From assembly GCA_963816185.1 (NCBI GenBank), contig CAWFJJ010000028.1, positions 448,001-512,000 on the forward strand: DNA of 64,000 bases, written 5' to 3'. Position 1 is the stretch's first letter; each line of letters starts with the position of its first letter. The notes below the pieces were generated by a model that was not told the origin of the DNA, did no database searches, and saw only the letters and a list, made by a program, of their open reading frames with translations. Source of the stretch: Thermoanaerobaculia bacterium (GTDB lineage: Bacteria > Acidobacteriota > Thermoanaerobaculia > UBA5066). A program made the translations under genes and the position numbers. Shown one piece after another: positions 3,931-36,495 of this stretch.

Positions 3931-4869
3931 GTGACCCCCGCGCGGCCTGGCCATGGCTCCGACGCGCTGAGGGAAACCCTCGCCTACTACCGCGACCTGG
4001 GGGTGGCAGAACTCTATCTGACGCGATCTCCTGGTCATGCGGCGTCCGAAGAGCACGAGGAGAAGGAGATTTCTGCGAATGTGAATCAGGCGGAGGGCAA
4101 TGCCGCGGCAGGATCCGCAGCGGCGGCGCACGCCGCACCGGCGTCCTTATTCACCTTCGAAGAAAACGCGCCCTATCACGGCGCTTCTAGGACCGCTCGA
4201 AGCGGGCCGCCCGCGCCAGGCGCCTCTTCCACCTTCGAAGAAAATGCTCCGTACCCCGCTACTTCGAAGTCAGCCGGAAACGCGAGCGCTTTGGAGCTGA
4301 AGTCTCTAGCAAGAATCGTCTCCTCCTGCGTCACGTGCCGCCTGTGCAAAACCCGCAAGCAGACGGTCTTTTCGGACGGGTCGCCCGATGCCCGGATCAT
4401 GTTCATCGGGGAGGCGCCCGGGGCCGACGAGGACCGGCAGGGCGTGCCGTTCGTCGGCCGTGCGGGGCAGCTCCTGACGAGAATGATCGAGGACGGCATG
4501 GGCCTCCCGCGCAGGTCCGTCTATATCGCGAACGTGCTGAAGTGCCGGCCCCCCGACAACCGGAACCCGGAGCCGGACGAGATCGCTTCGTGCCGCGGCT
4601 ATCTGGAACGGCAGATCGACCTCGTGAAGCCCGAGGTGATCGTCGCGCTCGGCAAGTTCGCGGCGCAGTTCCTCCTCGGGACCGAGGAAGGCATCATGCG
4701 TCTGCGCGGGAAGTGGGGAAGCTACCGCGGGATTCCGGTGATGCCCACGTTTCACCCCTCGTTCCTTCTGAGGCAGCCTGCCCAGAAGAAGGAAGCGTGG
4801 GAGGATCTCCTCGCCGTTCTTTCGAGGCTCGGAATCGATCCTCCGGCTCGAAGGGGAAAAGCGACGTGA
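3931..4869 (+). CDS. Uracil-DNA glycosylase family 4 with long low-complexity N-terminal linker
   Basis: C..C.LC..R cluster ligands, [32 protein letters not shown]. Confidence 0.9.
4066..4245. repeat. Paired-arm motif cluster inside the udg linker
   Basis: GAGATTTCTGCGAATGTGAAT (core 4071); TATTCACCTTCGAAGAAAA (core 4156); CCACCTTCGAAGAAAAT (core 4234). Confidence 0.65.
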
Positions 4870-7924: not shown

Positions 7925-8859
7925 CGGCGGATCTCGAGGACGAGATAGGGGTTCAGGGCCGTGCCGGCAATCCACGTGAAGCCGGGTACGGACATCAGCG
8001 CGAAGAAGGCCTTCATCGGGGAACCGAAAAGGTGGCCGTACCAGTGCGCGCCAACCTGGTTGAAGCGCAGACGGCGATGAGGCGACCGAACGGAGACACG
8101 GTACGCGGGCTCGAGGGATCTCGCGAGCGCGGCGATCTCCCTCACTTTCGGAAGAAATCCTTCGAAGGGCGAATGCCATCGCGCTCCACCGGCGCTCGGG
8201 CCGTGCCAGAAGTCGATGGGGAAGGCGCCGTTCGGGAAGTCGAGGTAGAGGACGCCGCCGGGCGCGAGGACTCGAACGAGGCCGGCCACGAAAGCGGTGC
8301 GTCGCGCGTCACGGTCGGCGAGCGGAGCCACCTCGTAGAGTCCAGGGCCCCCACGCTCGTCGACGCCGATATGTTCGAGAACGCCCGAGCAGACCACTGC
8401 GTCGAAGCAGCCATCGGGAAAGGGAAGGCGGAGCCCGTCCGCGACGACGAGACGGTCCCGGCGCTCTCTGGTGCGCCATTGCCACTTGCGGAAGGCTGAG
8501 AGGTCGTGTCCCCAGGCTTCGAAGCCTGCTTCCGAAAGAAGGTCGATCGCCTCGCCGTTCCCGCAGCCCGAGTCGAGAACGCGCCGTGCGCTCGTCGAAC
8601 GCAGGAGCGGCAGGTAGTAGTCCTCGATCCGCCGACCCGCGTTCTCGTTCTCGTATCCGCGACGTGCCTCGTCGGAGAGGGACGCAGGGTCCGGGTGGTC
8701 GTCGAAGTACTGCCGCCCGGAAAAATCGGCGATCCCGTCGTCGACGGGAAACGCGCGACCGCACGACGCGCACGTCAATGCGGTCGCGGAGGCGGAGAGC
8801 GCGCCATGGCAGGCAGGGCACACCAGGTCCACGCGCGCAACGGCCCTGCTGTCTTTCAT
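7921..8859 (-). CDS. Class I SAM-dependent methyltransferase with N-terminal Trm112-like zinc knuckle
   Basis: LVCPACH...CASCGRAFPVDDGI, VLDSGCGNG, LPFPDGCFDAV, VLEHI, VLAPGG. Confidence 0.8.
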   Translation of the reverse strand: MKDSRAVARVDLVCPACHGALSASATALTCASCGRAFPVDDGIADFSGRQYFDDHPDPASLSDEARRGYENENAGRRIEDYYLPLLRSTSARRVLDSGCGNGEAIDLLSEAGFEAWGHDLSAFRKWQWRTRERRDRLVVADGLRLPFPDGCFDAVVCSGVLEHIGVDERGGPGLYEVAPLADRDARRTAFVAGLVRVLAPGGVLYLDFPNGAFPIDFWHGPSAGGARWHSPFEGFLPKVREIAALARSLEPAYRVSVRSPHRRLRFNQVGAHWYGHLFGSPMKAFFALMSVPGFTWIAGTALNPYLVLEIRR

Positions 8860-8919
8860 TCTCAGAAATCTCTCTTCGGAGCTTGACCCGGGAGAGCCGC
8901 GCTGTCGAGCGACCTCCCG

Positions 8920-23466: not shown

Positions 23467-23487
23467 GAAACGGGAGAGGGACCGAAT

Positions 23488-23700
23488 GAATTTTCTTAGA
23501 AAGGGTGAGGGAGAAGGTGTCCGCACGAGGCGGGGGCGTACTTCGTGCGCCGGCGTCACCCGAGCCCTATTCATTTTCTAAGCAAAATCTTTCTCTTTTC
23601 GAACCCTTGTGTTAGGAGCTCTTGTGCCGCTGGGCTGTGTCCCGCCAGTGAGTCGCGGCCGCGGCCTCTTTCCTCTCGTACCCTTCTAAGAATCTTCTCT
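23488..23700. repeat. Paired-arm motif cluster, intergenic upstream of miaB
   Basis: ATTTTCTTAGAAAGGGTGA (core 23493); CCCTATTCATTTTCTAAGCAAAATCT (core 23576); CCCTTCTAAGAATCT (core 23684). Confidence 0.8.
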
Positions 23701-23724
23701 TTCTCCTCCTGCTAAGCTCGCAAG

Positions 23725-25152
23725 GTGAGCGTACCCCCGTCCCGCAGCCCGGCCCGAAGCGTCTTCGTCGAGACGTGGGGCTGCCAGATGAACGTCCTCG
23801 ACGGGCGGCGCTTCGTCGGACTCCTCGCTCGCGAAGGATTTTCCGAAGCGACATCTCCCGAGGAAGCAGACGTCATCCTCCTGAACACGTGCTCGGTTCG
23901 CGACAAGGCCGAGCAGAAAGTTTACGACCGGCTCGGGCGCCTCGCGAAGATCAAGCGCGAACGCCCGGAAACTGTGCTCGGCGTCTGCGGCTGCGTCGCG
24001 CAGCAGGAAGGGGAGAGGCTCCTCGAACGCCTGTCGCAGGTCGACTTCGTGCTCGGGACGGGACGCATCGAGGCCCTGCCGGCGGTCCTGCGCCGCGTCG
24101 AGGAGGAGGACGACAGGCCCTGCGAGACGGGCTTCGACCCGGACGAGGTCGTCTACACGCCCGCTGCGATCGCACGCTCGGTGCCGTACCGCGCCGCGAT
24201 CACGGTCATCGAGGGCTGCAACAAGAACTGCACGTTCTGCGTCGTTCCGCGCACGCGCGGGCGCGAGCGCAATCGCCGGCTTCGCGACATCGTGGACGAG
24301 TCCCGCCGCCTGCTCGGCGAGGGAGCCCTGGAGATCGAGCTCCTCGGACAGACCGTGAACGCGTTCCGTGATCCGGAAACCGGCGAGGACCTCGCGGACC
24401 TTCTCCGCGCGGTCGGTGCGCTGCCGGGACTTCGGCGCCTGCGCTTCGTGACGTCCCACCCGCGGAATTTCTCCGCCCGCCTCACCGCGGCGATGGCAGA
24501 CACTCCCGCGGTCGTCCCCGCCTTGCACCTGCCGGTCCAGTCCGGCTCCGACGCGGTGCTGCGCCGCATGAAGCGCCAGTACACGCGCGCGGAATATCTC
24601 GACCTCGTGGCGTCGCTTCGCGACGCCATCCCGGACCTTGCGCTCTCGACCGACGTCATCGTGGGCTTCCCGGGCGAGACGGACGACGACTTCGCGGCGA
24701 CGCTCTCTCTGCTCGAAGAGGTGAGATTCGCCGGCGTCTTCTCCTTCACGTATTCGCCTCGGCCCCGAACTGCCGCGCTCCACTGGGAACACGATGTCAC
24801 GCCGGGAAAGGCATCCGGCCGGCTTGCGCGGCTCATGTCCATTCAGCAGGAGATCCAGAGGCAGTTGAACCGCGAGATGGAGGGACGAACGCTGGACGTG
24901 CTCGTCGAGGGTCTCGACAGAAAGAGGCTCTTCAGCTCGGGCCGCTCCCGCTGCAACCGCGTCGTGAACATCGCGGGGGAGTCCGCGCTGCAGCCGGGCA
25001 CTCTCGTGAACGTACGAATCGAGCGGGGATTTCCGAATTCTCTGCTCGGAAGGATTAAGAGAATCGAAGAGAGAGATTTTCTTAGAAAGCCTTCGCATGA
25101 GCGGCCGTCCCAATGCGGCGAGGCCGGTTCGGTTCTCCCGGGCACCTTCTAA
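23725..25152 (+). CDS. miaB: tRNA-i6A37 methylthiotransferase
   Basis: TWGCQMN, NTCSVR.KAE, GCVAQ, radical SAM CNKNCTFC, LHLPVQSGS, TRAM domain. Confidence 0.94.
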   Translation: MSVPPSRSPARSVFVETWGCQMNVLDGRRFVGLLAREGFSEATSPEEADVILLNTCSVRDKAEQKVYDRLGRLAKIKRERPETVLGVCGCVAQQEGERLLERLSQVDFVLGTGRIEALPAVLRRVEEEDDRPCETGFDPDEVVYTPAAIARSVPYRAAITVIEGCNKNCTFCVVPRTRGRERNRRLRDIVDESRRLLGEGALEIELLGQTVNAFRDPETGEDLADLLRAVGALPGLRRLRFVTSHPRNFSARLTAAMADTPAVVPALHLPVQSGSDAVLRRMKRQYTRAEYLDLVASLRDAIPDLALSTDVIVGFPGETDDDFAATLSLLEEVRFAGVFSFTYSPRPRTAALHWEHDVTPGKASGRLARLMSIQQEIQRQLNREMEGRTLDVLVEGLDRKRLFSSGRSRCNRVVNIAGESALQPGTLVNVRIERGFPNSLLGRIKRIEERDFLRKPSHERPSQCGEAGSVLPGTF

Positions 25153-25161
25153 GAAATCCTC
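25071..25161. repeat. Paired-arm motif at the miaB 3' end; supplies the stop codon
   Basis: GAGATTTTCTTAGAAAG (core 25079) ... CACCTTCTAAGAAATCC (core 25147). Confidence 0.85.
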
Positions 25162-25294
25162 GGTTGTCTCCTTCTGGAAATCTCCTGTAATTCGTTCTAA
25201 AACAAGAAGTTAATGGCATGAGAAGGCTCATGGATCAAGGGCTCTTCCTTGCTTTATCCCGGTTTCCTCCCTAGATTGATAACGGAGAAGTCGT

Positions 25295-25780
25295 GTGAGC
25301 ATCAAGATGGACGTGAAAGCGCTGATCGTCGACCCGATCGCAAACATGCCGGTCGTGATCTTGCGCGACGAGGAAGAGAAGAATTTCCTGCCGATCTGGG
25401 TTGGAGTCTTCGAGGCAAACGCCATCGCGCTTCAGATGGAAGGCGTCACCACGCCCCGGCCGATGACTCACGATCTCTTGAAGAATCTCATCATACAGAT
25501 CGAGGGCGACGTGCAGCGAGTCGTCATCAACAGCCTCAAGGAAAACACGTTCTACGCCCAGATCCACCTCAGGGTCGCCAACAAGGACGTCCTCGTCGAC
25601 AGCCGGCCGTCGGATGCGATCGCACTGGCTCTCCGGCTCCAGGCGCCCGTCTTCGTCGAGGAGGCCGTCCTCGAGATGAGCCGGAACGGAGAAGACACCG
25701 CGGAAGCACAGAACGCGGAGCGCCTGAGAAAATGGCTCGAGGAAGCGGATCCGGACACTCTCGGCAAATACAGGATGTGA
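25295..25780 (+). CDS. Bifunctional nuclease family protein (DUF151)
   Basis: LPIWVG.FEA.AI, RPMTHDL, DSRPSDAIALA. Confidence 0.9.
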   Translation: MSIKMDVKALIVDPIANMPVVILRDEEEKNFLPIWVGVFEANAIALQMEGVTTPRPMTHDLLKNLIIQIEGDVQRVVINSLKENTFYAQIHLRVANKDVLVDSRPSDAIALALRLQAPVFVEEAVLEMSRNGEDTAEAQNAERLRKWLEEADPDTLGKYRM

Positions 25781-25852
25781 TTTTCGCCGCGGGACGAACG
25801 ATTCGTCCTTGAAGCCTCCGCGCCCCCTCCGTATCATTCGCGTCGCCGGCGC

Positions 25853-26614
25853 ATGATCATCACTGTTGCAAATCAGAAAGGCGGTGTGGGGAAGACCACG
25901 ACCGCGATCAACCTTGCCGCGGCGCTTGCGCAAAAGGGTCTCCGGACTCTCCTCATCGACCTCGATCCCCAGGGCAACTCGACGATGTCCTTTCTGGATC
26001 GCAAGGACGTGGAAAAGTCGATGTACGAGGTGCTCACGGATCCGAGCGCGTCGTTCTTCGACATCGTCAAAGAGACGAGCGTCCCGAAGCTCACGATCGC
26101 GCCCGCGCGCATCTCGCTCGCGAAGGTGGAGTCGAAGCTCCTCGGTGAGCTCGACGGGCATTTTCGGCTCAAGGACAAGCTTCAGGTCGTGCGAGAATCG
26201 GGAGAGTACGACGCGATCCTCATCGACACACCGCCTACGCTCGGCATGATCACGGTGAACGCGCTCGTCGCCTCGACACACATCCTGATCCCGATTCAAT
26301 CCTCTTATTTCGCACTCGAAGGCACCGACGACCTCCTCGAGACGATCGAGAAGATCAAGAACCGGCCCAATCCGAACCTCCAGATCTTGGGCGTCGTGAT
26401 CACGCTTCACGACAAGCGCACGACGCTCGGAAAAGACATCCAGAGTCAGATCAACCAGGTCTTCAAAGACAAGCTCTTCAAGACGACGATCTCGAAGTCC
26501 ATTCGGCTGGAGGAATCGCCGGCGTATCGAGAATCCATCTTCACATTCGCTCCGCGCTCGTCAGGCGCGCTCGAGTACTACAGCCTGACTGAGGAGATCC
26601 TGTCCCGTGTCTAA
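25853..26614 (+). CDS. parA: ParA/Soj family ATPase
   Basis: NQKGGVGKTTTA deviant Walker A, DLDPQGN, IDTPP.LG, NAL.A. Confidence 0.9.
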   Translation: MIITVANQKGGVGKTTTAINLAAALAQKGLRTLLIDLDPQGNSTMSFLDRKDVEKSMYEVLTDPSASFFDIVKETSVPKLTIAPARISLAKVESKLLGELDGHFRLKDKLQVVRESGEYDAILIDTPPTLGMITVNALVASTHILIPIQSSYFALEGTDDLLETIEKIKNRPNPNLQILGVVITLHDKRTTLGKDIQSQINQVFKDKLFKTTISKSIRLEESPAYRESIFTFAPRSSGALEYYSLTEEILSRV

Positions 26615-27503
26615 GCGCCGCGGTCTGCCGGAAACTTCGCGCATGCGTCACGACTCGCACTTCGTCGAGCAGCTCGTCCGCGCGGACGAGCTGCCGGTCG
26701 GACGTCGCATTCCGATCCACCTCATCGAGGCGAATCCCGATCAGCCGCGCAGCACGATGGGAGACCTTGCGGACCTGACGAGATCGATCGTGGATAAAGG
26801 CGTCCTCGAGCCGATCCTCGTGCGTCCCCGCGGTGACGGACGCTTCACGATCATCTCCGGCGAACGGCGCTTTCGCGCCGCGCTCGACGCGGGTCTCCCG
26901 GAAATTCCGTGCATCGAGATGGACGTCGCCGACAATGAGCTGCTCGAGATCGCGCTCGTCGAGAATCTCCAGCGCAGGGACCTGAGCCCTTTCGAGGAGG
27001 CCGACGGATATAGAGCTCTTCAGGAACGCCACGGATACACGCACGAACAGATCGCAGACGCCGTGGGGAAGTCGCGCGTGACGATCACCGAAGCGCTCTC
27101 CATCGCGCGGCTCCCCGAACGCGTGCAGGTTGAATGTCGGCGCGCCGACATCGGATCGCGGTCCTTCCTCCTCGAGCTCGGAAGACTCAAGGACGAAGAC
27201 CTCATGCTCGCCGCGGTCGTGGCGATGGCGAGCGGTGAGACCTTGAGCCGCGACGTCCTGCGGGAAGCGAAGAAGGACGCGCGCCGCGGCACGAGCTCGA
27301 AGCTAGGCGGAATGAAGAGGGCGTACACACTCGATTTCGCTCCGGAGGACAAGCGCTACAAGGTCAGCCTTGTTCTCAAGGGCCGCCTCCACAAGAAGGA
27401 CGAAATCCTCGAAGCGATCCGCGATGTCGCGCGCCGAATCGAAGCGGGGGACATCGACCTCGAGGCACAGGGTCGATTCGTGAAGGCGAAAGCAAAGAAG
27501 TAG
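26607..27503 (+). CDS. ParB/Spo0J/Noc family CTPase with divergent HTH
   Basis: NPDQPR, GVLEPILVR, SGERRFRA, ALVENLQRRDL, HTH THEQIADAVGKSR. Confidence 0.9.
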   Translation: MSKRRGLPETSRMRHDSHFVEQLVRADELPVGRRIPIHLIEANPDQPRSTMGDLADLTRSIVDKGVLEPILVRPRGDGRFTIISGERRFRAALDAGLPEIPCIEMDVADNELLEIALVENLQRRDLSPFEEADGYRALQERHGYTHEQIADAVGKSRVTITEALSIARLPERVQVECRRADIGSRSFLLELGRLKDEDLMLAAVVAMASGETLSRDVLREAKKDARRGTSSKLGGMKRAYTLDFAPEDKRYKVSLVLKGRLHKKDEILEAIRDVARRIEAGDIDLEAQGRFVKAKAKK

Positions 27504-27589
27504 AGACGCCCGCTCGGAGCGCTCCTCTCCGCGCGCAGGGAAGCCTCCTTCTCGACCGCCCTCATTTCGTTAGGCACGGGCTCTCCAGA

Positions 27590-27617
27590 ATTTAACATAA
27601 TAAATATTATCGGACGT
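27590..27617 (-). other. dif site (XerC/XerD recombination site)
   Basis: Minus strand reads ACGTCCGATAA TATTTA TTATGTTAAAT: an 11-6-11 layout whose right arm equals the E. coli XerD arm. It is a very AT-rich intergenic island in GC-rich DNA. Confidence 0.88.
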
Positions 27618-27688
27618 TGCGCATTGGCGCTGGAATCGGCCCGAAAAGAGCACAAGAGAATCTTCTTCTTCGTCTTACCATCGGTTCC

Positions 27689-29992
27689 GTGTTGCGGCGC
27701 GTGGATCGCTACGTCTTCCGCGAGGTTCTGGCGCCCACGTTCGTGGGCTTCCTCGCGTACACGGGCTTCATGGCCGTCCGGGGTCTCGTGCAGTTCTCGG
27801 AGCTGCTCGTGCAGAGCGAGCAGCCGTTCGTCGAGGCCGGCCTCGTCGTCGCCCTCTCGCTCCCGCACATCGTCGTCCTCACGCTTCCCATCGCGTTTCT
27901 CCTGGGGCTCCTCATCGGAATCGGACGGCTTTCAGCCGACTCCGAGCTGACCGCCCTTCGCGCCTCGGGCGTCGACCTGCTGTCCCTTTACAGACCGATC
28001 GCAATCCTCGCGGTCGCGATCGGCGCCGCGACGCTCGCGCTGATGCTCGGCGTCGTCCCGAGGACGAACCATCTCCTCTATGCGATGAAGCTCCGCCTCT
28101 CCAGCTTCGCGTTCGCCCAGCGCATCCAGCCGGGCGTCTTCAGCCCCGAGATCGCCGGATTCAGGGTTTACGCCGAGGGAGCTTCGCCCGACCGCCGGGA
28201 GCTCACGGGCCTCATCATCTCGGATCGCTCCAGCCCCGAGGGCGAAAGGCTGACGCTCGCAAAGCGAGGCTGGCTGGAGCTGGAGGAGGACCAGGGCCGG
28301 CTCTGGCTGCGCGTCGAGGACGCCGAGACCCATCACATGCAGGCGGGCGGCGCCCGATACGACATCACGTCCTTCTCGGAGCACCGCATGGTCCTCCAGG
28401 ACAACGGCCCGACCGGCGGCGTCACGGAAAAGCAGATCCGCGAGCAAACGCTGCGCGAGCTTCTCGAACGCGCCGCTGCCCGTACACGCCGGCCGGAGGA
28501 CCGCAGGCTCGCGCTCACGGAGGTCCACAAGAAGTTCGCTCTGCCGTCGGCGTGTCTCGTCTTCGGCCTCATCGGGCTGCCCCTCGGCATCGTCAACCGG
28601 CGCGGAGGGCGCGCGGCCGGGTTCGCCGTGTCCGTCGCGATCGTGCTTCTCTACTACGCCCTTCTCGCCACGGGCGAAGCGCGGGCGATCGAAGGCCGAA
28701 TGTCGCCGGCTCTCGCCATGTGGCTGCCAAACCTCATCCTTCTGGCGTTCGGCGCTTTCGCACTCGACCGCGTGCGGCGTGACAAGGAGATCTTCTCCTT
28801 TCCCATGAGCGCCGCCGCACCCGTCGCCGCGACCGCGACGCCGGCGTCCGGCCAGGCGCCCGTGGCCGAAAAGGGCCCGGGCCTCCCGGCCCGACGGGCT
28901 CCGTTTCCGGGCCTTCTCCTCATCGACCGCTACGTCGCACGGCGATTTCTCGGCACATTCGCCCTCGTCGTGACCTCGATCGCGACGCTCTACGTGCTGA
29001 TCGACTACCTCGAGATCTCCGACGACATCGCCCGCCATCGACCCCCGACGACTCTCATCCTGCGTTACTACCAGGCCTTCCTGTCTCCGATCATCCTAGA
29101 CATCGTGCCGTTCGCGTTTCTCGTGGCCGCGCTCGTGACCATCGCGAGCCTCGTACGCTCCGGCGAGACGACCGCACTTCTCGCGCACGGGGTCTCTCTC
29201 TATCGAACCACGGCTCCCCTTCTCGTGCTCGCCGTGGCGGCCGGAGCCGGACTCTTCGTTTTCGCCGAGCGCGTCGTTCCGGCGGCGGCTTCGGAATCCG
29301 ACCGAATCCGGTTCCTGCTCAAGGGACAGAAGCCTCCTCTCAGCGGGGCCGGCGGGGCCTGGTTCCGAGGCGACGGAGGACGCTTTCTCGCGGCGGACGC
29401 ATACGATCCCGCCTCTCGCGTCGCGAGCGGCGTCACGGTGCTTCAAATCGACCCCGCGAGATGGAGGCTCGTCTCACGCCACGACGCGACCCGGGCGCGC
29501 GTCGTGCCGGGCAAGGGCCTTCTCGCGGAAAGCGGTTGGATCCGGACGTTCTCGCCGGGCAACGTTCTGGCCATCCGGCGCGACGATCCGTTTTTGATCG
29601 AGGCGCCGGAGGCCGCCGCCGGCTTTGCCGCCGGACGGGCCGACCCGCGTCAAATGACGTTCCGTGAGCTCTCGCACTTCATCGACGTCCGTCGCAGGGC
29701 CGGGGCCGACACGGCGGCTCTTGCGACGGGTCTCCACCAGAAGACCGCGGTGGCGGCGTCCTCTCTTCTTCTCACGCTCATCGGACTCCCCTTCGCGTTC
29801 GCGTACGGAAAGCGCGGGGCCGTGGCGGGAGTCGGCGTCGCGCTTTTCCTCGGCCTGACGTATCTGTTCCTCTCCGCGCTTCTCGTCTCGTTCGGGCAGC
29901 AGGGCGCGATCCCGCCTTTCCTCGCTGCATGGGCCCCGAACATCTTCTTCGGTCTCGGCGCAGCGTGGGGATTGCTTGGAGTGAGAACGTAG
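27689..29992 (+). CDS. Fused LptF-LptG LPS export permease
   Basis: Two YjgP/YjgQ units, each beginning DRYV, with RLSADSELTALRASG and RSGETTALLAHG, and each ending AMWLPN / AAWAPN. Confidence 0.88.
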   Translation: MLRRVDRYVFREVLAPTFVGFLAYTGFMAVRGLVQFSELLVQSEQPFVEAGLVVALSLPHIVVLTLPIAFLLGLLIGIGRLSADSELTALRASGVDLLSLYRPIAILAVAIGAATLALMLGVVPRTNHLLYAMKLRLSSFAFAQRIQPGVFSPEIAGFRVYAEGASPDRRELTGLIISDRSSPEGERLTLAKRGWLELEEDQGRLWLRVEDAETHHMQAGGARYDITSFSEHRMVLQDNGPTGGVTEKQIREQTLRELLERAAARTRRPEDRRLALTEVHKKFALPSACLVFGLIGLPLGIVNRRGGRAAGFAVSVAIVLLYYALLATGEARAIEGRMSPALAMWLPNLILLAFGAFALDRVRRDKEIFSFPMSAAAPVAATATPASGQAPVAEKGPGLPARRAPFPGLLLIDRYVARRFLGTFALVVTSIATLYVLIDYLEISDDIARHRPPTTLILRYYQAFLSPIILDIVPFAFLVAALVTIASLVRSGETTALLAHGVSLYRTTAPLLVLAVAAGAGLFVFAERVVPAAASESDRIRFLLKGQKPPLSGAGGAWFRGDGGRFLAADAYDPASRVASGVTVLQIDPARWRLVSRHDATRARVVPGKGLLAESGWIRTFSPGNVLAIRRDDPFLIEAPEAAAGFAAGRADPRQMTFRELSHFIDVRRRAGADTAALATGLHQKTAVAASSLLLTLIGLPFAFAYGKRGAVAGVGVALFLGLTYLFLSALLVSFGQQGAIPPFLAAWAPNIFFGLGAAWGLLGVRT

Positions 29993-30010
29993 GAACAATT
30001 AGGAAGATAG

Positions 30011-30165
30011 GAGAAAGAGAAGACAGAGATTTTCTTAGAAGGTGCCCGTGCCGGGATGAACTGGCCGCGCCGCGCCGACAAGGCGGCCCGCGCCCCAACG
30101 CGGCCGGCGCTGGATGGGCGTTCCCCCTGCCCTATTACCTTCTAGGAAATCATCCTCTTTCTCTT
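30011..30165. repeat. Paired-arm motif between convergent lptFG and ahcY
   Basis: GAGATTTTCTTAGAAGGT (core 30032) ... CCCTATTACCTTCTAGGAAATC (core 30140), with complementary GA-rich and TC-rich flanks. Confidence 0.85.
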
Positions 30166-30177
30166 CGGTCTCCCGTC

Positions 30178-31545
<1,368 letters not shown>

Positions 31546-31569
31546 TCAGGAAACATCAGTCAGCGAGCG

Positions 31570-32652
31570 TCAATCAGAGTGTCGGGTCCGAAGAGGACCC
31601 TTCTTCGAATGGTGAATAGGGCTGGGCGCCGCCGGGGCCTTGCTCGTCGGAGCCGGGCTTGCCGAAATCTCTTTCCTTCTAAGAAGATCTCTCGTGGTCT
31701 CTCGTCTTCGTCCGCCGTCCCGGACGGCGTCGACGATGTACGTGGCAAGAGCGACCTCCCCGGAGACCGTGGAGACCCGGTAGGGAGCAAATGCCGAGAA
31801 GCGCGCATCGGCGAAGCCTGCGCGCCCGAGGCCGCCGCGAATGGTCTCGCGCGGCAGTCCGAGGTGCTGCGCGCCGGTCACGGCGCGCAGCGCACGCAGG
31901 CCGTGGGGCTCGAGCTCGACGAGGACCACGCGACCGCCCGGCTTCATCGTGCGCCCGAGCTCCGCGAGCGCGTCCGCCGGCCGGACGAGATGCCGGAGAA
32001 GGTGAAACGCGAAGATCGCGTCGAACGCTCCGTCGTCGAACGGCAGCTTCTCGGCGCGCGCGCGCCGCACCGTCACGTTCGCCGCGCCTGCGCGCCGGAG
32101 CTTCGCCCGCGCGAGGCGGACCATGCGTTCGCTCGCGTCTACGGCTTCGACCGTCTCCGCCACGCCGGCAAGCGTGAGGGTCAGAAGTCCCGTGCCGCAG
32201 CCGACGTCGGCGACCCGGAGGCCGCGCGGCACGAGCCTGAGGAGCGCCGCCTCGCGAACTCCCGGCGAATAGAACGGGCCCTGAAACCGGTCCCACTCTC
32301 CCGCGACCGCGTCGAAGCTCACGTCCGGAAGCGCCGTGGCACGCTCTTCGAGGACGTCCCTCAGCCGCTCGTCGTCGGACCGAAACGCAGGATCCGTGAC
32401 GGCCGAAGCCACCGACAGCCAGAGCTTCCGCCCGTCACCCGTCGCCGCGTAACGCTCGGACCCGGTCGTACGGCGCGTTTCGACGAGACCGGCGCGCCTC
32501 AGCACGGCGAGGTGGTTCGAGACGCGCGATTGAGCCGCCCCGAGGATCCGCTGGATCTCCCGAACGTGCAGCTCCTCGCCGGCGAGAAGCCGAACCGCCC
32601 GTAGGCGCAACGGGTCGGCGAGGGCGGACAGGGCGACCGTGGACTCCAGCAC
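31570..32652 (-). CDS. ArsR-HTH plus SAM-methyltransferase-fold regulator (SahR-like)
   Basis: LADPLRLR, QSRVSNHL.VLR.AGLV, ADVGCGTG, HLG; located between metK and ahcY. Confidence 0.85.
   Translation of the reverse strand: MLESTVALSALADPLRLRAVRLLAGEELHVREIQRILGAAQSRVSNHLAVLRRAGLVETRRTTGSERYAATGDGRKLWLSVASAVTDPAFRSDDERLRDVLEERATALPDVSFDAVAGEWDRFQGPFYSPGVREAALLRLVPRGLRVADVGCGTGLLTLTLAGVAETVEAVDASERMVRLARAKLRRAGAANVTVRRARAEKLPFDDGAFDAIFAFHLLRHLVRPADALAELGRTMKPGGRVVLVELEPHGLRALRAVTGAQHLGLPRETIRGGLGRAGFADARFSAFAPYRVSTVSGEVALATYIVDAVRDGGRRRETTRDLLRRKEISASPAPTSKAPAAPSPIHHSKKGPLRTRHSD
31598..31693. repeat. Paired-arm motif in the 3' end of the sahR-like gene
   Basis: TTCTTCGAATGGTGAATAGGG (core 31601) ... 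CCTTCTAAGAAGATCTCTC (core 31677). Confidence 0.75.
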
Positions 32653-32669
32653 CGCGAGACCATATCACA

Positions 32670-32689
32670 TGATCACGTTTGTCTGATAT
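32670..32689 (-). promoter_or_regulatory. Putative SahR-type operator (ATCA-N8-TGAT)
   Basis: Minus strand ATATCAGACAAACGTGATCA, ending 17 nt upstream of the regulator start codon. Confidence 0.6.
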
Positions 32690-32718
32690 TAAGACGGGGA
32701 AAGAGTTGCTTCCTATAT

Positions 32719-32834
32719 TCGGGGCTGCTGATGCAGCCCCGATAGTAGAAAATTTTCTTCCCGAATGGCCGATGTCAAGGGCGCGCTTCGCGCGCCGCGC
32801 AGCGGTCGGAGACCCTTGACATCGGTCATTCGGG
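32719..32834. repeat. Two hairpins: perfect 10-bp stem (32719-32742) and 22-bp inverted repeat (32760-32781 / 32813-32834)
   Basis: TCGGGGCTGC-tgat-GCAGCCCCGA; CCCGAATGGCCGATGTCAAGGG ... CCCTTGACATCGGTCATTCGGG with 1 mismatch. Confidence 0.85.
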
Positions 32835-32880
32835 GGAAAACGCCTACCTCGAGATGCCGCGAGCCGCAGGCTCTCCCGAG

Positions 32881-32915
32881 CCCTATTTTCTTTCTAAGAA
32901 GAATCTCTTCTTTTC
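32881..32915. repeat. Right arm of the paired motif downstream of metK
   Basis: CCCTATTTTCTTTCTAAGAAGAATCTC (core 32892). Confidence 0.7.
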
Positions 32916-34082
32916 TCAGGCCGTCGCCGGCACCGCCGCGCGGAAGGCGGCCGCCAGAGACTCTGCCTTGTCAGTGCGCTCCCACGTGAACTCCGGGAGA
33001 CGGCGGCCGAAATGGCCGTACGCCGCGGTCTTCTTGAAGATGGGGCGACGCAGGTCGAGCGCGTCGATGATGCCTTTCGGCGTGAGCTTGAAGTGCTCGC
33101 GCACGAGCTTCGAGAGCGCCGCCGGATCGACATTCGAGGTCCCGAACGTCTCGACGAGGACCGACACGGGATCTGCCACGCCGATCGCGTAGGCGAGCTG
33201 GACTTCCACCTTGTCCGCCAGGCCGGCGGCCACGAGGTTCTTCGCGATGTAGCGCGCCATGTAAGAGGCGGAGCGGTCCACCTTCGTGGCGTCCTTGCCC
33301 GAGAAAGCGCCGCCGCCGTGGCGCCCGAAGCCCCCGTACGTGTCGACGATGATCTTGCGGCCCGTCAGTCCGGTGTCGCCCTGAGGCCCTCCTACGACGA
33401 AGCGGCCCGTCGGATTGATGTGGAACTTCGTGTTGTCGTCGAGGAGGGCCGCGGGCATGACCGGCCGGATGATCTCCTCACGCACGGCCTCGCGCAGCTC
33501 GGGCGTGGGAACCGTCTCCGCGTGCTGCGTCGAGATGACCACGGCTTCCACACGTACGGGCCGATCGCCTTCGTATTCGACCGTGACCTGGCTCTTGCCG
33601 TCGGGGCGTAGCCACTCGAGGGTCTTCGACTTGCGGGCCTCGGCGAGGCGCATCGTCAGCTTGTGCGCGAGCGTGATCGGAAGAGGCATGAACTCCTCGG
33701 TCTCCCGCACGGCGAGCCCGAACATGAGGCCCTGATCGCCTGCGCCGCCGGTATCGACCCCCATGGCGATGTCCGGTGATTGCTTGTCGATCGTCGAGAT
33801 GACGGCGCACGTCTCGTAGTCGAATCCGTATTTCGCTCGGGTATAGCCGACGTCGCGGATCGTCTCGCGCACGATGCCCGGGATGTCCACGTACGTCTTC
33901 GTCGTGATCTCACCCGCGATCAGCGCGAGGCCCGTCGTGACGAGCGTCTCGCACGCGACCCGCCCGAGGGGATCGTCCTTGAGGATCGCGTCGAGGATCG
34001 CGTCCGAGATCTGGTCGGCGATCTTGTCCGGGTGGCCTTCCGTGACCGATTCCGACGTGAAGAGACTGCGGTTCTTTGCCAT
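32916..34082 (-). CDS. metK: S-adenosylmethionine synthetase
   Basis: [35 protein letters not shown]. Confidence 0.97.
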
Positions 34083-34145
34083 GGTTCTACGCTCCGAGAG
34101 CCGCTCTGCGGCGAAGCGCGGAGTTTAGCAGGGCGGGCGATCCCC

Positions 34146-34781
34146 TCAAGGGCGAAAGATCAGGAAACGCGTCGTGCCGTAACGCCGGTGGCCCGCCGGG
34201 GCGAGCCCAAAAGGGCAAAGGACCTTGTCGTCCCCCCGCTCGTGAAAGAGCCAGCCTCCCGAGCGCACGAGCGGGATCAGACGCTGAAGGTCGGATTCGG
34301 AGGATTCGGAATCTTCTTTGAAAGGAGGATCGTGGAAGACGACGTCGAATCCGGTCTCGCCGCGGCGGGTGTGATCCTCTGCAAATTTCTTAGAAGGTAA
34401 GAGGTCTGCGGCGCTGCGCTCGACGCGAGCCGCCTGCGGCGCGCCGCGACCCTCGTGCTCTTCTACATCTGAAGAGAATCTCTCTACGGACATCACCTCT
34501 ATGCGAGATGTCTCCCCCGCACCGAGCCGTTCCACGTTCCCCCTCAAGACTCTCGCGACGGCACGATCCACCTCGACGAACGTGGCGTGCGCGGCGCCCC
34601 GCGAAAGCGCCTCCAGGCCGTAGGCTCCGGAGCCCGCGCACGCGTCGAGCACTCTGGCGCCGACGACCGCCTCCCCGAGGATGTCGAACGCCGCCTTGCG
34701 CGTGAGCTCGGTCGTCGGGCGGATACCCGCCGGAATCGCCAGCTTTCGTCCGCGCCAGATGCCGGCGGTGACGCGCACCAA
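34146..34781 (-). CDS. rsmD: 16S rRNA m2G966 methyltransferase RsmD family, with internal insertion
   Basis: RVTAGIWRGRKL, RPT, LDACAGSGAYGLEALSRGA, FDVVFHDPPF, RYGTT. Confidence 0.85.
   Translation of the reverse strand: MVRVTAGIWRGRKLAIPAGIRPTTELTRKAAFDILGEAVVGARVLDACAGSGAYGLEALSRGAAHATFVEVDRAVARVLRGNVERLGAGETSRIEVMSVERFSSDVEEHEGRGAPQAARVERSAADLLPSKKFAEDHTRRGETGFDVVFHDPPFKEDSESSESDLQRLIPLVRSGGWLFHERGDDKVLCPFGLAPAGHRRYGTTRFLIFRP
34310..34485. repeat. Paired-arm motif cluster inside rsmD
   Basis: TTCTTTGAAAGG (core 34314); AATTTCTTAGAAGGTAAGAGG (core 34387); degenerate right arm TCTGAAGAGAATCTCTC near 34468. Confidence 0.65.
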
Positions 34782-34783
34782 CC

Positions 34784-35527
34784 TCAGCGCCTCGCGGCGG
34801 GCGAAGGCATTGGAGGCCGCGAACCGGCGACGGCCGGATCCTCGAAGAGGCGCGGGATGTCGCCGCGATACACGAAGATCCCCAGCTTGTGGCTCCCCTC
34901 CTCGCCGCTTGCGTCGAGCTCCTCCAGCTCGAAGTCGTGATCCAGAGCGTCGTCGTGGACGACGCGGTACCAGACGCCGTCGGCCCGTCTCCGAAGGAAA
35001 GAGCCGTCCCTGAGGGCGCTCGTGTCCCACTTCGTCTCGGCGAGATCCTGCTTCTCGAACCGCGACCGGAGGTCCTCGAGCGCTCCCCGCGCTCTCCCAA
35101 CCGCCAGCGGCAGCGACGTGAGATCGTCATACTTGTAGATGCGCGAGCCTCCGGCCGGATCCGCGACCTCGATCTTGATGCGCCGCGCCTGCGCATCTCC
35201 GAGGGCCGACCGGCTCGGGTCCTCGACGTCGCTCGCGCGTACGGCCAGAGCCTCGAGACAAACCCTCCGCACCAGGGCGATCTCCTCAGGCGAGATCGCC
35301 TTGCGATCGACGATCCGCTCGGTGCGGTATCCGCGGACCCTCACGAGCGTCCCGTCGTCGAAGAGCGCCACGCGCTCCATCCCGATGCCCTGCCGGGACT
35401 CGAGCGCCGCGATGAGATGAGGATCGCGCTTCTCCGGCGTCGGCGTCGGAAGAGCCGTCGGTGTCGGTGCGGGCGACGGAGAGGGAGCCGCCGCCAACAG
35501 CACCGCGAGGAGCACGGACCCGGTCAT
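34784..35527 (-). CDS. Hypothetical secreted protein
   Basis: Signal-peptide-like start followed by a Pro/Thr linker; translationally coupled to the upstream gene. Confidence 0.6.
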   Translation of the reverse strand: MTGSVLLAVLLAAAPSPSPAPTPTALPTPTPEKRDPHLIAALESRQGIGMERVALFDDGTLVRVRGYRTERIVDRKAISPEEIALVRRVCLEALAVRASDVEDPSRSALGDAQARRIKIEVADPAGGSRIYKYDDLTSLPLAVGRARGALEDLRSRFEKQDLAETKWDTSALRDGSFLRRRADGVWYRVVHDDALDHDFELEELDASGEEGSHKLGIFVYRGDIPRLFEDPAVAGSRPPMPSPAARR

Positions 35528-36495
35528 CGGACTTCCGCTTCTGCGGCGCGCCTCAAGGCTTTCGGGAAGTTCAGCCGGGAGGCGACAGCCGCGCGCTCGA
35601 CCGCGGTCAGCGGCGCGAGGAGGCGTCTCCAGGAGATTTCTGCTTTCGGACGCTCGGGCTCCTGGCGGTGCGCGTCGAGAAATGCCGGAGCAGAGCGAGA
35701 GGTGGTTTTTTTCTTTGAAGGTGAGTGGGGGATCGTCCAGCCGGGGAGCACGTCGCCAAAGAGTTCGAGCTCAGCCGCGAGCCCGAGCGAGCGGTCCCAA
35801 TACCCTTCTAAGAAAATCTCCTCGAATCCCCTGCGCATTCGGTCGCCGGAAAGAGCTGCGAACGAACCTGCGGCACGCGCCTTCTTGAGGGCTTTCCCGA
35901 ATTCCCCGTCCCACGCGAAACCCAGCCTCACGGCATATCTCACGGCCCGATAGGCGCGCGTCGGGTCGTCGACCAGGGAGTTCGGGTGAAGGAGCCGGAG
36001 CGTCTTGGACGAGAGATCCCTGCGGCCGCCGAACGGATCGAGGACCGTTCCCGTCAGGCCGCGCTTACCCACCCGCCGGGCCATGGCATTGATCGTGAAG
36101 TCGCGGCGGCTGAGATCCTCCTCGATCGTGGTCGTGCCCGTGACGACGGGCAGGCTCGCGGGCGCCGGATACTCCTCGCGGCGCGTCGCGGCGACGTCCA
36201 CGCGCAAGCCGCCGGGCGCCCGGAGCCTCGCCGTGCCGAACCGCGCATGCGATTTCTCGAGCGTCCAGCCGGGCAGGGCTCCGAGACGCGTCGCGAGCTC
36301 GAGAGCGGTCGCGGCGGCCGCCTCCACGGCGAGATCCACGTCCTGAAGCGGGCGGCCGAGGAGCATGTCGCGCAGCGCCCCTCCGACGAACCACAACCCC
36401 ACCTCACGCCGGTCCGCGATTTCACCCACGCGCACGAGCTGGGCGGCGACCTCCTCGGCGGCGAACGCGAGCGCGAGCTCGTCCTCGGCGGTCAT
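35524..36495 (-). CDS. tRNA nucleotidyltransferase / poly(A) polymerase family protein
   Basis: VGGALRD, DVD, FGT, DLSRRDFTINAMA, DPFGG..DL, DDPTR..RA.RYA.R. Confidence 0.88.
   Translation of the reverse strand: MTAEDELALAFAAEEVAAQLVRVGEIADRREVGLWFVGGALRDMLLGRPLQDVDLAVEAAAATALELATRLGALPGWTLEKSHARFGTARLRAPGGLRVDVAATRREEYPAPASLPVVTGTTTIEEDLSRRDFTINAMARRVGKRGLTGTVLDPFGGRRDLSSKTLRLLHPNSLVDDPTRAYRAVRYAVRLGFAWDGEFGKALKKARAAGSFAALSGDRMRRGFEEIFLEGYWDRSLGLAAELELFGDVLPGWTIPHSPSKKKTTSRSAPAFLDAHRQEPERPKAEISWRRLLAPLTAVERAAVASRLNFPKALRRAAEAEVR
35706..35823. repeat. Paired-arm motif inside the nucleotidyltransferase gene
   Basis: TTTTTTCTTTGAAGGTGAGTGGGG (core 35711) ... CCCTTCTAAGAAAATCTC (core 35806). 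Confidence 0.8.

Follow-up and report, generated by a model that had tools for sequence, protein, structure and literature searches.

The window examined here, a 64,000-nucleotide stretch from a Thermoanaerobaculia bacterium (genome G000, contig C28, positions 448001-512000), carries a dispersed family of DNA words termed arms. The arm is an asymmetric word of ~25-30 bp, made up of a purine-rich tract, GAT, TTCTTnGAA and GG(T/G)GAAGAGGG, and it is found mainly in head-to-head pairs in which a left (L) arm precedes a right (R) arm. It is specific to one genus of the Thermoanaerobaculia, with a low-copy version in one sister genus. As read from alignments, the arms inside genes arose by silent codon changes and amino-acid replacements that the proteins tolerate, and the genes kept their length or nearly so; the word is also found in intergenic DNA, which can expand. 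We give about an even chance to the reading that the arm is an asymmetric protein-recognition word whose head-to-head pairs are kept by selection or by drive, a reading drawn from patterns in the DNA. The genome spans 5.09 Mb in 30 contigs, with 67% GC and a completeness of 94.9%.

The arm word

The core TTCTWAGAA occurs nine times in the window against 0.02 expected (none of 100 shuffles reached nine) and 337 times in the genome. Exact cores in the window stand at 23493, 23684, 25079, 25147, 30032, 31677, 32892, 34387 and 35806, cores with one mismatch at 23576, 30140, 31601, 34314, 35711, 2441, 2541, 2631, 4156 and 4234, and weak sites at 4071 (TTCTGCGAA) and 34468 (TCTGAAGAG). All the cores listed in the initial annotation of this DNA were found in place, those at 4071 and 34468 being the weak ones.

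Oriented by the core, the L-arm consensus runs from a purine-rich tract through GAT and TTCTTAGAA to the inner flank, GG(T/G)GAAGAGGG, and the R arm is its mirror image: CCCTCTTCACC, TTCTAAGAA, ATC and a pyrimidine-rich tract. This flank, seen genome-wide, replaces the GGTGAATAGGG given in the initial annotation, and the literal 26-mer quoted there is an idealised consensus that finds no match when up to three mismatches are allowed. The sixth base of the L-arm core TTCTTnGAA is variable (A 201, C 93, T 21, G 7); therefore, the word is TTCTTnGAA and is asymmetric.

A position weight matrix (PWM) finds 569 arms of at least 22 bits in the genome and 59 in the reversed genome, and arm density is ~1 per 9-15 kb. 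Some PWM pairs in genes are chance matches to conserved peptides, in GlmU (recognised by eye) and in a Ser/Thr-kinase family, and for this reason counts of strict cores are given beside the PWM counts. Conservation along the arm is uneven: it is strongest in the core, weaker in the flank and nil beyond, and the cores of partner arms agree at 8.13 of nine positions. Neutral decay from one master copy would not give this unevenness. Literature searches returned only eukaryotic contexts for the core word among the matches listed, and no such element among the matches listed for repeats and palindromes of Thermoanaerobaculia; the element may have been published elsewhere.

Pair geometry, spacers and placement

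Neighbouring strict cores within 400 bp fall into 61 LR, four RL, eight LL and four RR arrangements, an orientation bias of ~15:1 for L before R, and neighbouring PWM arms of at least 20 bits into 189, nine, 33 and 33, respectively. A partner is present for 349 of 492 strong arms (71%). The claim that the left arm always comes first thus describes the window and is upheld genome-wide by the 61 to four among strict cores. Core-to-core spacing was put at 68-108 bp, which is correct for the window; genome-wide the range is wider, 45-250 bp, and peaks sharply at 73-78 bp, where 20 of the 61 strict LR pairs fall. The DNA enclosed by the arms is 35-240 bp long at a modal core-to-core distance of 75 bp, and its sequence is arbitrary. 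The spacers had been described as unrelated, and so they are: 17 of 15,931 spacer pairs give any BLAST match, and all 17 can be attributed to contig duplication, gene paralogy or a second repeat family described below. Position-specific identity, taken over 34 elements of 73-79 bp, is 0.45 in the inner flank against 0.37 in shuffles and 0.32 against 0.32 at the centre, and it is absent beyond ~12 nt from the core.

Two other accounts of the spacers were tried and rejected. As captured genomic fragments they would have sources elsewhere, but 22 of 179 have another genomic match and the strong ones are paralogues, duplicated contigs or the second repeat family. Small open reading frames (ORFs) in the spacers, with the L arm read as a Shine-Dalgarno-like sequence, were dismissed on inspection, as the distances do not suit such a role and coding on both strands would be required.

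The arms could act in RNA rather than DNA, the purine-rich L arm pairing with the pyrimidine-rich R arm in an mRNA hairpin for termination, stability or processing, or the C/U-rich R arm serving as a Rho-loading site. The consensus arms are perfectly complementary over ~23 nt, many intergenic copies lie 10-40 nt past stop codons, and a transcript from either side meets the purine-rich arm first. However, the arms of a pair are no more alike than random combinations of L and R arms (z -0.8 to 1.0), with no compensatory change and only ~41% identity in the 14-nt inner flank; therefore, no hairpin is maintained. The spacers are unstructured, folding no more stably than shuffled sequences (mean z -0.28). 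Of the 179 pairs, 87, or about half, lie inside one gene, at any relative position, and divergent, tandem and convergent intergenic regions are occupied in baseline proportions (++ 44, -- 23, -+ 16 and +- 9, against 1124/897/530/439). No Rfam family reached its gathering score in the window, where one sub-threshold M23 match fell in 32600-32960, and a search of the window for tRNA and tmRNA returned none. Two RNA sequencing runs contained only 5-6% of the words sampled. An RNA element is in our view highly improbable. Roles as terminator, promoter or ribosome-binding site were rejected on the same baseline configurations and on the orientation of solo arms, which is unbiased toward genes.

Uneven conservation, the lack of covariation and the lack of strand or gene polarity together point to recognition of each arm by a protein, and the L-before-R rule suggests that a complex forms only where two arms face inward. 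Each arm would be a half-site for a putative sequence-specific DNA-binding protein, which would engage two inward-facing arms and ignore the DNA between them. The words would be kept by selection for binding or by a molecular drive of the kind proposed for uptake signals, and the complex might serve in looping, recombination, uptake or topology.

The initial annotation had also called the family indifferent to gene boundaries, which is half true. Many strict cores, 162 of 337 (48%), lie in called coding sequences (CDS), using only stop-free frames, but the other 175 are intergenic, an excess over the ~15% of the genome that is intergenic by the calls of our own crude codon-usage gene caller. 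Cores occur on 13 of the 14 contigs longer than 40 kb, at 0-11.7 per 100 kb, in an open assembly in which ori and ter are not placeable. Regular chromosomal spacing was considered and rejected, the spacing of loci being over-dispersed (coefficient of variation 1.23).

A dif-like 28-mer with an exact ATTATGTTAAAT arm does lie at 27585-27612, between parB and lptFG, but the density of loci near it, where the initial annotation had seen them densest, is unremarkable: 12% of 64-kb windows reach nine cores, at a mean of 4.4. With loci irregularly spaced and density ordinary near this site, the proposal of a chromosome-organising code finds no support. The parAB genes usually lie near oriC, and a dif-like site is an uncommon neighbour for them; no switch of GC skew occurs inside the window.

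Arms written onto native codons

The origin of the arms can be followed within genes. The codons within arms end in A or T against a GC content at third codon positions of ~0.83. In ispE, 20 of 22 full-length matches from outside the genus are 378 nt long, and genes inside the genus measure 384-408 nt. The R arm reads ATT CAC CTT TCA AAG AAA ATC CCC (IHLSKKIP) where other genera have ATC CAC CTC GAG AAG AGG ATC CCG, the L arm sits over TTC GAG GAG, and the 40 codons between the arms are native. A rimO/miaB-type gene is 1335-1341 nt long in all 28 full-length matches, from nine of the 10 genera sampled. Its L arm is graded, from GAC TTC GAG GAG in the outgroup through CTC, CTG and TTG to GAT TTC TTA GAA in the sister genus and the genus, and its R arm puts PFEEKSS in the place of PAEVKEE without altering the length, both states being found in the sister genus and in the genus.

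In the CCA-type gene, the L arm (EEIFLEG) aligns without gaps to a native helix in eight outgroup genomes, and does so equally in six when G013 and G018 are left out. The arm keeps A/T-ending codons (ATT, TTA, GAA, AGA, ATA) across 12 species, and both arm peptides are readable in 11 of 12 other orthologues from the genus. The rsmD gene is a mixed case, with one arm, read as ARFSSKGEEG, that is kept in 14 of 19 orthologues and followed by a loop of variable length, and another over the DPPF-KE motif. A transposed block could not leave arms over native codons in genes whose length is unchanged or nearly so.

Some further observations concern the same genes. The CCA/poly(A)-polymerase-type gene of the window (34784-36495) encodes 323 aa, against an ORF of 424-466 aa in other families, and its stop is overlapped by a 247-aa ORF without Pfam matches; this could be a split or remodelled gene. 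A sister-genus genome holds, at L189 (G057:C84), a second ispE copy of the main-genus type, arms included, which may reflect bin contamination or transfer. An arm pair (554952/555090) also lies between the two HHH_3 domains of a ComEA-like ORF (G000:C1:554596-555330).

Distribution and the case for DNA uptake

Scanned as a 23-mer with at most two mismatches, the word is present in all 26 genomes of the genus, at 17-105 copies each. One sister genus has it in seven of eight genomes, at 1-5 copies, and no match was found in 26 genomes from eight other genera of the family or in eight genomes from two other families of the order. A genus-specific word with a low-copy version in a sister genus would suit a DNA uptake signal like the uptake signal sequence (USS) of Pasteurellaceae or the DNA uptake sequence (DUS) of Neisseriaceae. 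The word would then bias transformation, alleles bearing it would spread by molecular drive, and the pairs would be a by-product. USS and DUS occur at ~1 per kb, and the arm word is longer and about ten times sparser, which argues against this account. The arrangement of the arms is also not what uptake of a single word predicts, with 71% of strong arms paired, L before R at 15:1 and a mode at 75 bp. ComEC and ComEA-type domains are encoded in the genome, but they are near-universal and were found in 10-11 of the 14 control genomes. The emptiness of the window from 36 to 64 kb would fit uptake as well; the initial annotation was right that no convincing copy lies in this part, which it called an accessory block, but at the genome density such emptiness is unremarkable. 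The manner of origin is alike: the absence of gaps against homologues from motif-free genomes is a test of non-insertion applied to USS in PMC1626085, according to which USS and DUS likewise prefer non-coding DNA, have many coding copies, occur across a genus or family and include some close opposed pairs. On balance we consider an uptake signal unlikely.

Turnover of copies and the question of mobility

Several observations weigh against the protein-recognition reading. Copy number varies 6-fold within the genus, from 17 to 105, and between G000 and G003, which share ~85-90% nucleotide identity, six of 14 informative loci have no element in G003. Orthologous arms are 62-68% identical over 26 nt while their spacers score 0.38, 0.47 and 0.68 at three loci against a shuffled baseline of 0.44, so that at one of the three the spacer is as conserved as the arm (0.68 against 0.66); the evidence that intergenic arms are under purifying selection is not firm. 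Spacer length has no helical phasing (R = 0.06 at 10.5 bp), a check that the initial annotation had proposed. The test of origin in situ covers three genes (ispE, rimO/miaB-type and CCA-type), a part of the arms in CDS, and the rsmD arm is accompanied by an insertion of variable length. Intergenic copies, finally, are gained and lost as blocks of extra DNA, a pattern that resembles mobile DNA. Among 26 genomes, the locus at C28:525762 has overlapping stop and start codons in 10, near-exact, excision-like TGA(n)ATGA junctions in five, a partial element in five and a full one in six. Variants peculiar to this locus, TTCTAAGCA among them, are common to the filled copies, which therefore have a single origin, followed by losses or recombination. 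A second polymorphic locus, adjoining the RNase P RNA gene, behaves in the same way. The heavy intergenic gain and loss, together with the 6-fold variation in copy number, leave a mobile or drive component open.

Two features of the RNase P RNA locus may be recorded here. The gene, a class A RNase P RNA (265.8 bits; G000:C28:434483-434880, L105:584-981), lies directly downstream of the polymorphic site, and at this site two relatives hold the second repeat family and not the element.

Such turnover is what a mobile doublet would produce, a unit of L arm, spacer and R arm moved by a transposase acting on the arms, in the manner of a REPIN or a miniature inverted-repeat transposable element (MITE), with interiors that differ through age or capture. 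Presence and absence between genes has whole-block boundaries, the one insertion at C28:525762 is flanked by TGA...ATGA repeats where relatives have TGATGA or TGAATGA junctions, the genomes hold 17-105 copies, and metagenome contigs break at arms. However, a second clean filled/empty site has no target duplication, and in three genes the arms lie over native codons at gene lengths that are unchanged or nearly so. In G021, 20 loci have a near-identical 23-mer L arm (14 exact, six with one mismatch), yet unrelated DNA lies directly beyond it and the R arms are degenerate or missing.

A search for the REP-associated tyrosine transposase (RAYT) or Y1 family (PF01797) matched six of 14 genomes as a control and gave no match in the 94.9% complete G000, nor was a TnpB domain found there. 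Its transposase matches are 11 of IS110 type, one of IS630 type and one of IS4 type; of ten such genes checked in G000 alone, nine have no arm within 2.5 kb and the tenth, on C12, has a single R arm ~1.8 kb away. Spacers with a common ancestor, target duplications and a transposase with matching ends, named at the outset as the marks of a MITE, were all looked for: interiors are not shared, duplications are inconsistent and none of the ten transposase genes checked adjoins an arm. The Logan contigs showed neither inversion nor excision joints linking arms of this strain. One X2 joint, 26001/30012 on opposite strands, was set aside as a repeat artefact by its appearance.

REPINs are a close mobile parallel. 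According to PMC3116915, 93% of the doublets are inverted, at 71 bp, with a spacer less conserved than the ends. REPINs and the related bacterial interspersed mosaic elements (BIMEs) resemble the arms in being lineage-specific inverted doublets in hundreds of copies (71 bp in the REPIN, 75 bp here) and in their mosaic association with other repeat modules. REPINs form hairpins in which compensatory changes are common, lie beside RAYT genes and overlap genes in 14 of 1,067 16-mers (PMC3116915; see also PMC3337134), REP elements being extragenic. The arms differ on each count: 48% of strict cores are in CDS, partner arms do not covary, no RAYT was found, and the in-gene copies originate from native codons. 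The premise of the initial annotation that REP elements conserve their interior is itself not quite right, as REPIN spacers are less conserved than the REPs (PMC3116915). A mobile doublet seems to us a rather improbable source of the family. The preference of the initial annotation for a protein-bound site over a MITE or REP element holds in so far as spacers are free, arms arise in situ, partners do not covary and conservation resembles recognition, but the mobile component is open and the binder is putative.

Protein recognition can be extended, tentatively and with some doubt, to a bipartite code used throughout the genus. A dedicated candidate protein would read inward-facing half-sites 45-250 bp apart, and its benefit or drive would be strong enough to rewrite codons in the essential ispE, rimO-type, rsmD and CCA-type genes; the family might then belong to an undescribed chromosome-structuring or recombination/uptake system.

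Other repeats of this genome stand apart from the arms. An IS110-family element of ~1.47 kb, unrelated to them, is present in six copies of ~99% identity (G000:C25:393100-394560 and five other places) and is probably active. The second repeat family, at 32715-32840 of the window, has ~55 copies genome-wide, for example at G000:C14:41700-41830. It consists of an inverted repeat, CCCGAATGnCCGATGTCAAGGG ... CCCTTGACATCGGnCATTCGGG, around a 31-bp segment that is found in both orientations (flip/flop), followed by a GC hairpin CGGCGGCTGCATCAGCAGCCGCCG and CATATCAGAA, and its copies are frequently located immediately interior to an L arm. An opposite-strand joint, 32751/32835, is seen for the window copy in one X4 contig.

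Arms along the window

The arms in the middle of the window lie among ptsI, a hypothetical gene, a miaB-like gene (23725-25152), parA, parB and lptFG (ending at 29992), followed on the minus strand by ahcY, an arsR-methyltransferase fusion, metK, rsmD, an unassigned ORF, the CCA/poly(A)-polymerase-type gene and dnaE. Pair 1 (23470-23600) is intergenic, 27 nt past the stop of the hypothetical gene (23466), with its L core at 23493-23501 (TTCTTAGAA, 31.0 bits) and its R core at 23576-23584 (TTCTAAGCA, 27.9 bits). In 13 of 17 related loci this region is a short, conserved and element-free intergenic spacer of 55-75 bp. An extra R arm at 23684-23692 (28.0 bits) precedes the miaB-like gene, with 33 nt between it and the GTG start. 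Pair 2 (25079-25155; L 25079, 19.4 bits; R 25147, 24.7 bits) occupies the 3' tail of the same ORF, whose TAA stop (25150-25152) falls within the R core.

Pair 3 (30011-30165; L 30032, 25.3 bits; R 30140, TTCTAGGAA, 26.6 bits) occupies the gap between two convergent genes, bounded by the stops of lptFG (29992) and ahcY (30178). Of 21 related loci, 11 have both of its arms, and the other 10 have no arms or a remnant only; where the element is lacking, the stops can be a mere 3 bp apart, or purine/pyrimidine remnants are kept. In metagenome reads assembled as Logan contigs, one X4 contig joins 29985 to 30182 at 90% likeness, and probably stems from a relative.

Pair 4 (31601-31685; L 31601, TTCTTCGAA, 14.0 bits; R 31677, 26.4 bits) is placed between ahcY and the arsR-methyltransferase gene, whose ORF reads ~48 extra codons through it (31570-31716); most relatives match only residues 1-312 of the 360, and some reach residues 351-360 because they too carry this arm, in an identical frame (PIHHSKKG). 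Two copies of a short direct repeat, CTGATTGAYGCT, lie in 31530-31580, between Pair 4 and the ahcY start. A solo R arm at 32892-32900 (32.0 bits), 16 nt past the metK stop, adjoins the copy of the second repeat family.

The minus-strand rsmD gene has three arms in 34314-34480, at 34314 (TTCTTTGAA, 17.9 bits, the one over DPPF-KE), at 34387 (28.0 bits) and, in degenerate form, near 34468, and these bracket a hypervariable loop. The pair in the CCA/poly(A)-polymerase-type gene, also on the minus strand (35711-35814), consists of the arm at 35806 (33.9 bits), which reads EEIFLEG, and that at 35711 (24.9 bits), which reads PHSPSKKK.

Toward the start of the window, weaker R arms of the TTCGAAGAA type lie in 2541-2639 (2541, 15.6 bits; 2631, 26.1 bits). 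A core pair 2441/2541 had been proposed here; the core at 2441 is present, but as an L partner it scores below 14 bits. The arms in 4071-4242, an L-like one at 4071 (19.9 bits) and R arms at 4156 (24.5 bits) and 4234 (26.1 bits), are all intergenic by our own gene calls. A further R-like arm at 8859-8867 (TTCTCAGAA, 21.7 bits) was absent from the initial list.

Relation to known systems and significance

MITEs and Correia elements likewise have terminal inverted arms and differ in presence or absence between relatives; unlike them, the arm family has no shared interior, no consistent target-site duplication and no cognate transposase. The matS, NBS, SBS and parS-type sites are single short palindromes with known proteins, confined to chromosomal domains and tolerant of positions in genes. 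The arm, by contrast, is asymmetric and paired, occurs on nearly all of the long contigs and has only a putative reader. Rickettsia palindromic elements (RPEs) are reportedly insertions of a whole conserved element that add residues (Ogata et al. 2000), whereas here only the arms are shared, the rimO-type gene is of equal length, and ispE is merely 2-10 codons longer, far below the length of two arms. The likeness lies in a repeat found in frame within protein-coding genes as well as between them; in R. bellii, 53 of 526 RPEs are in genes (PMC1458961).

Repeats scattered through bacterial genomes are usually classed either as mobile elements (REPIN, MITE, RPE) or as uptake signals (USS/DUS). 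The arm family joins a REPIN-like paired geometry with a USS-like, codon-rewriting origin in situ, and we place it, as a new variant, among lineage-specific interspersed words, outside the REPIN, USS/DUS and RPE families compared. Its host is an uncultured genus of Acidobacteriota from soil and sediment, in which neither mobile-type repeats nor uptake signals are known to have been described. The annotation of metagenome-assembled genomes is affected, as arms break short-read contigs and ORFs run through elements. If a reader protein exists, the ~250 loci per genome would be ready binding sites with which to find it and to learn what head-to-head arms with free spacers do.

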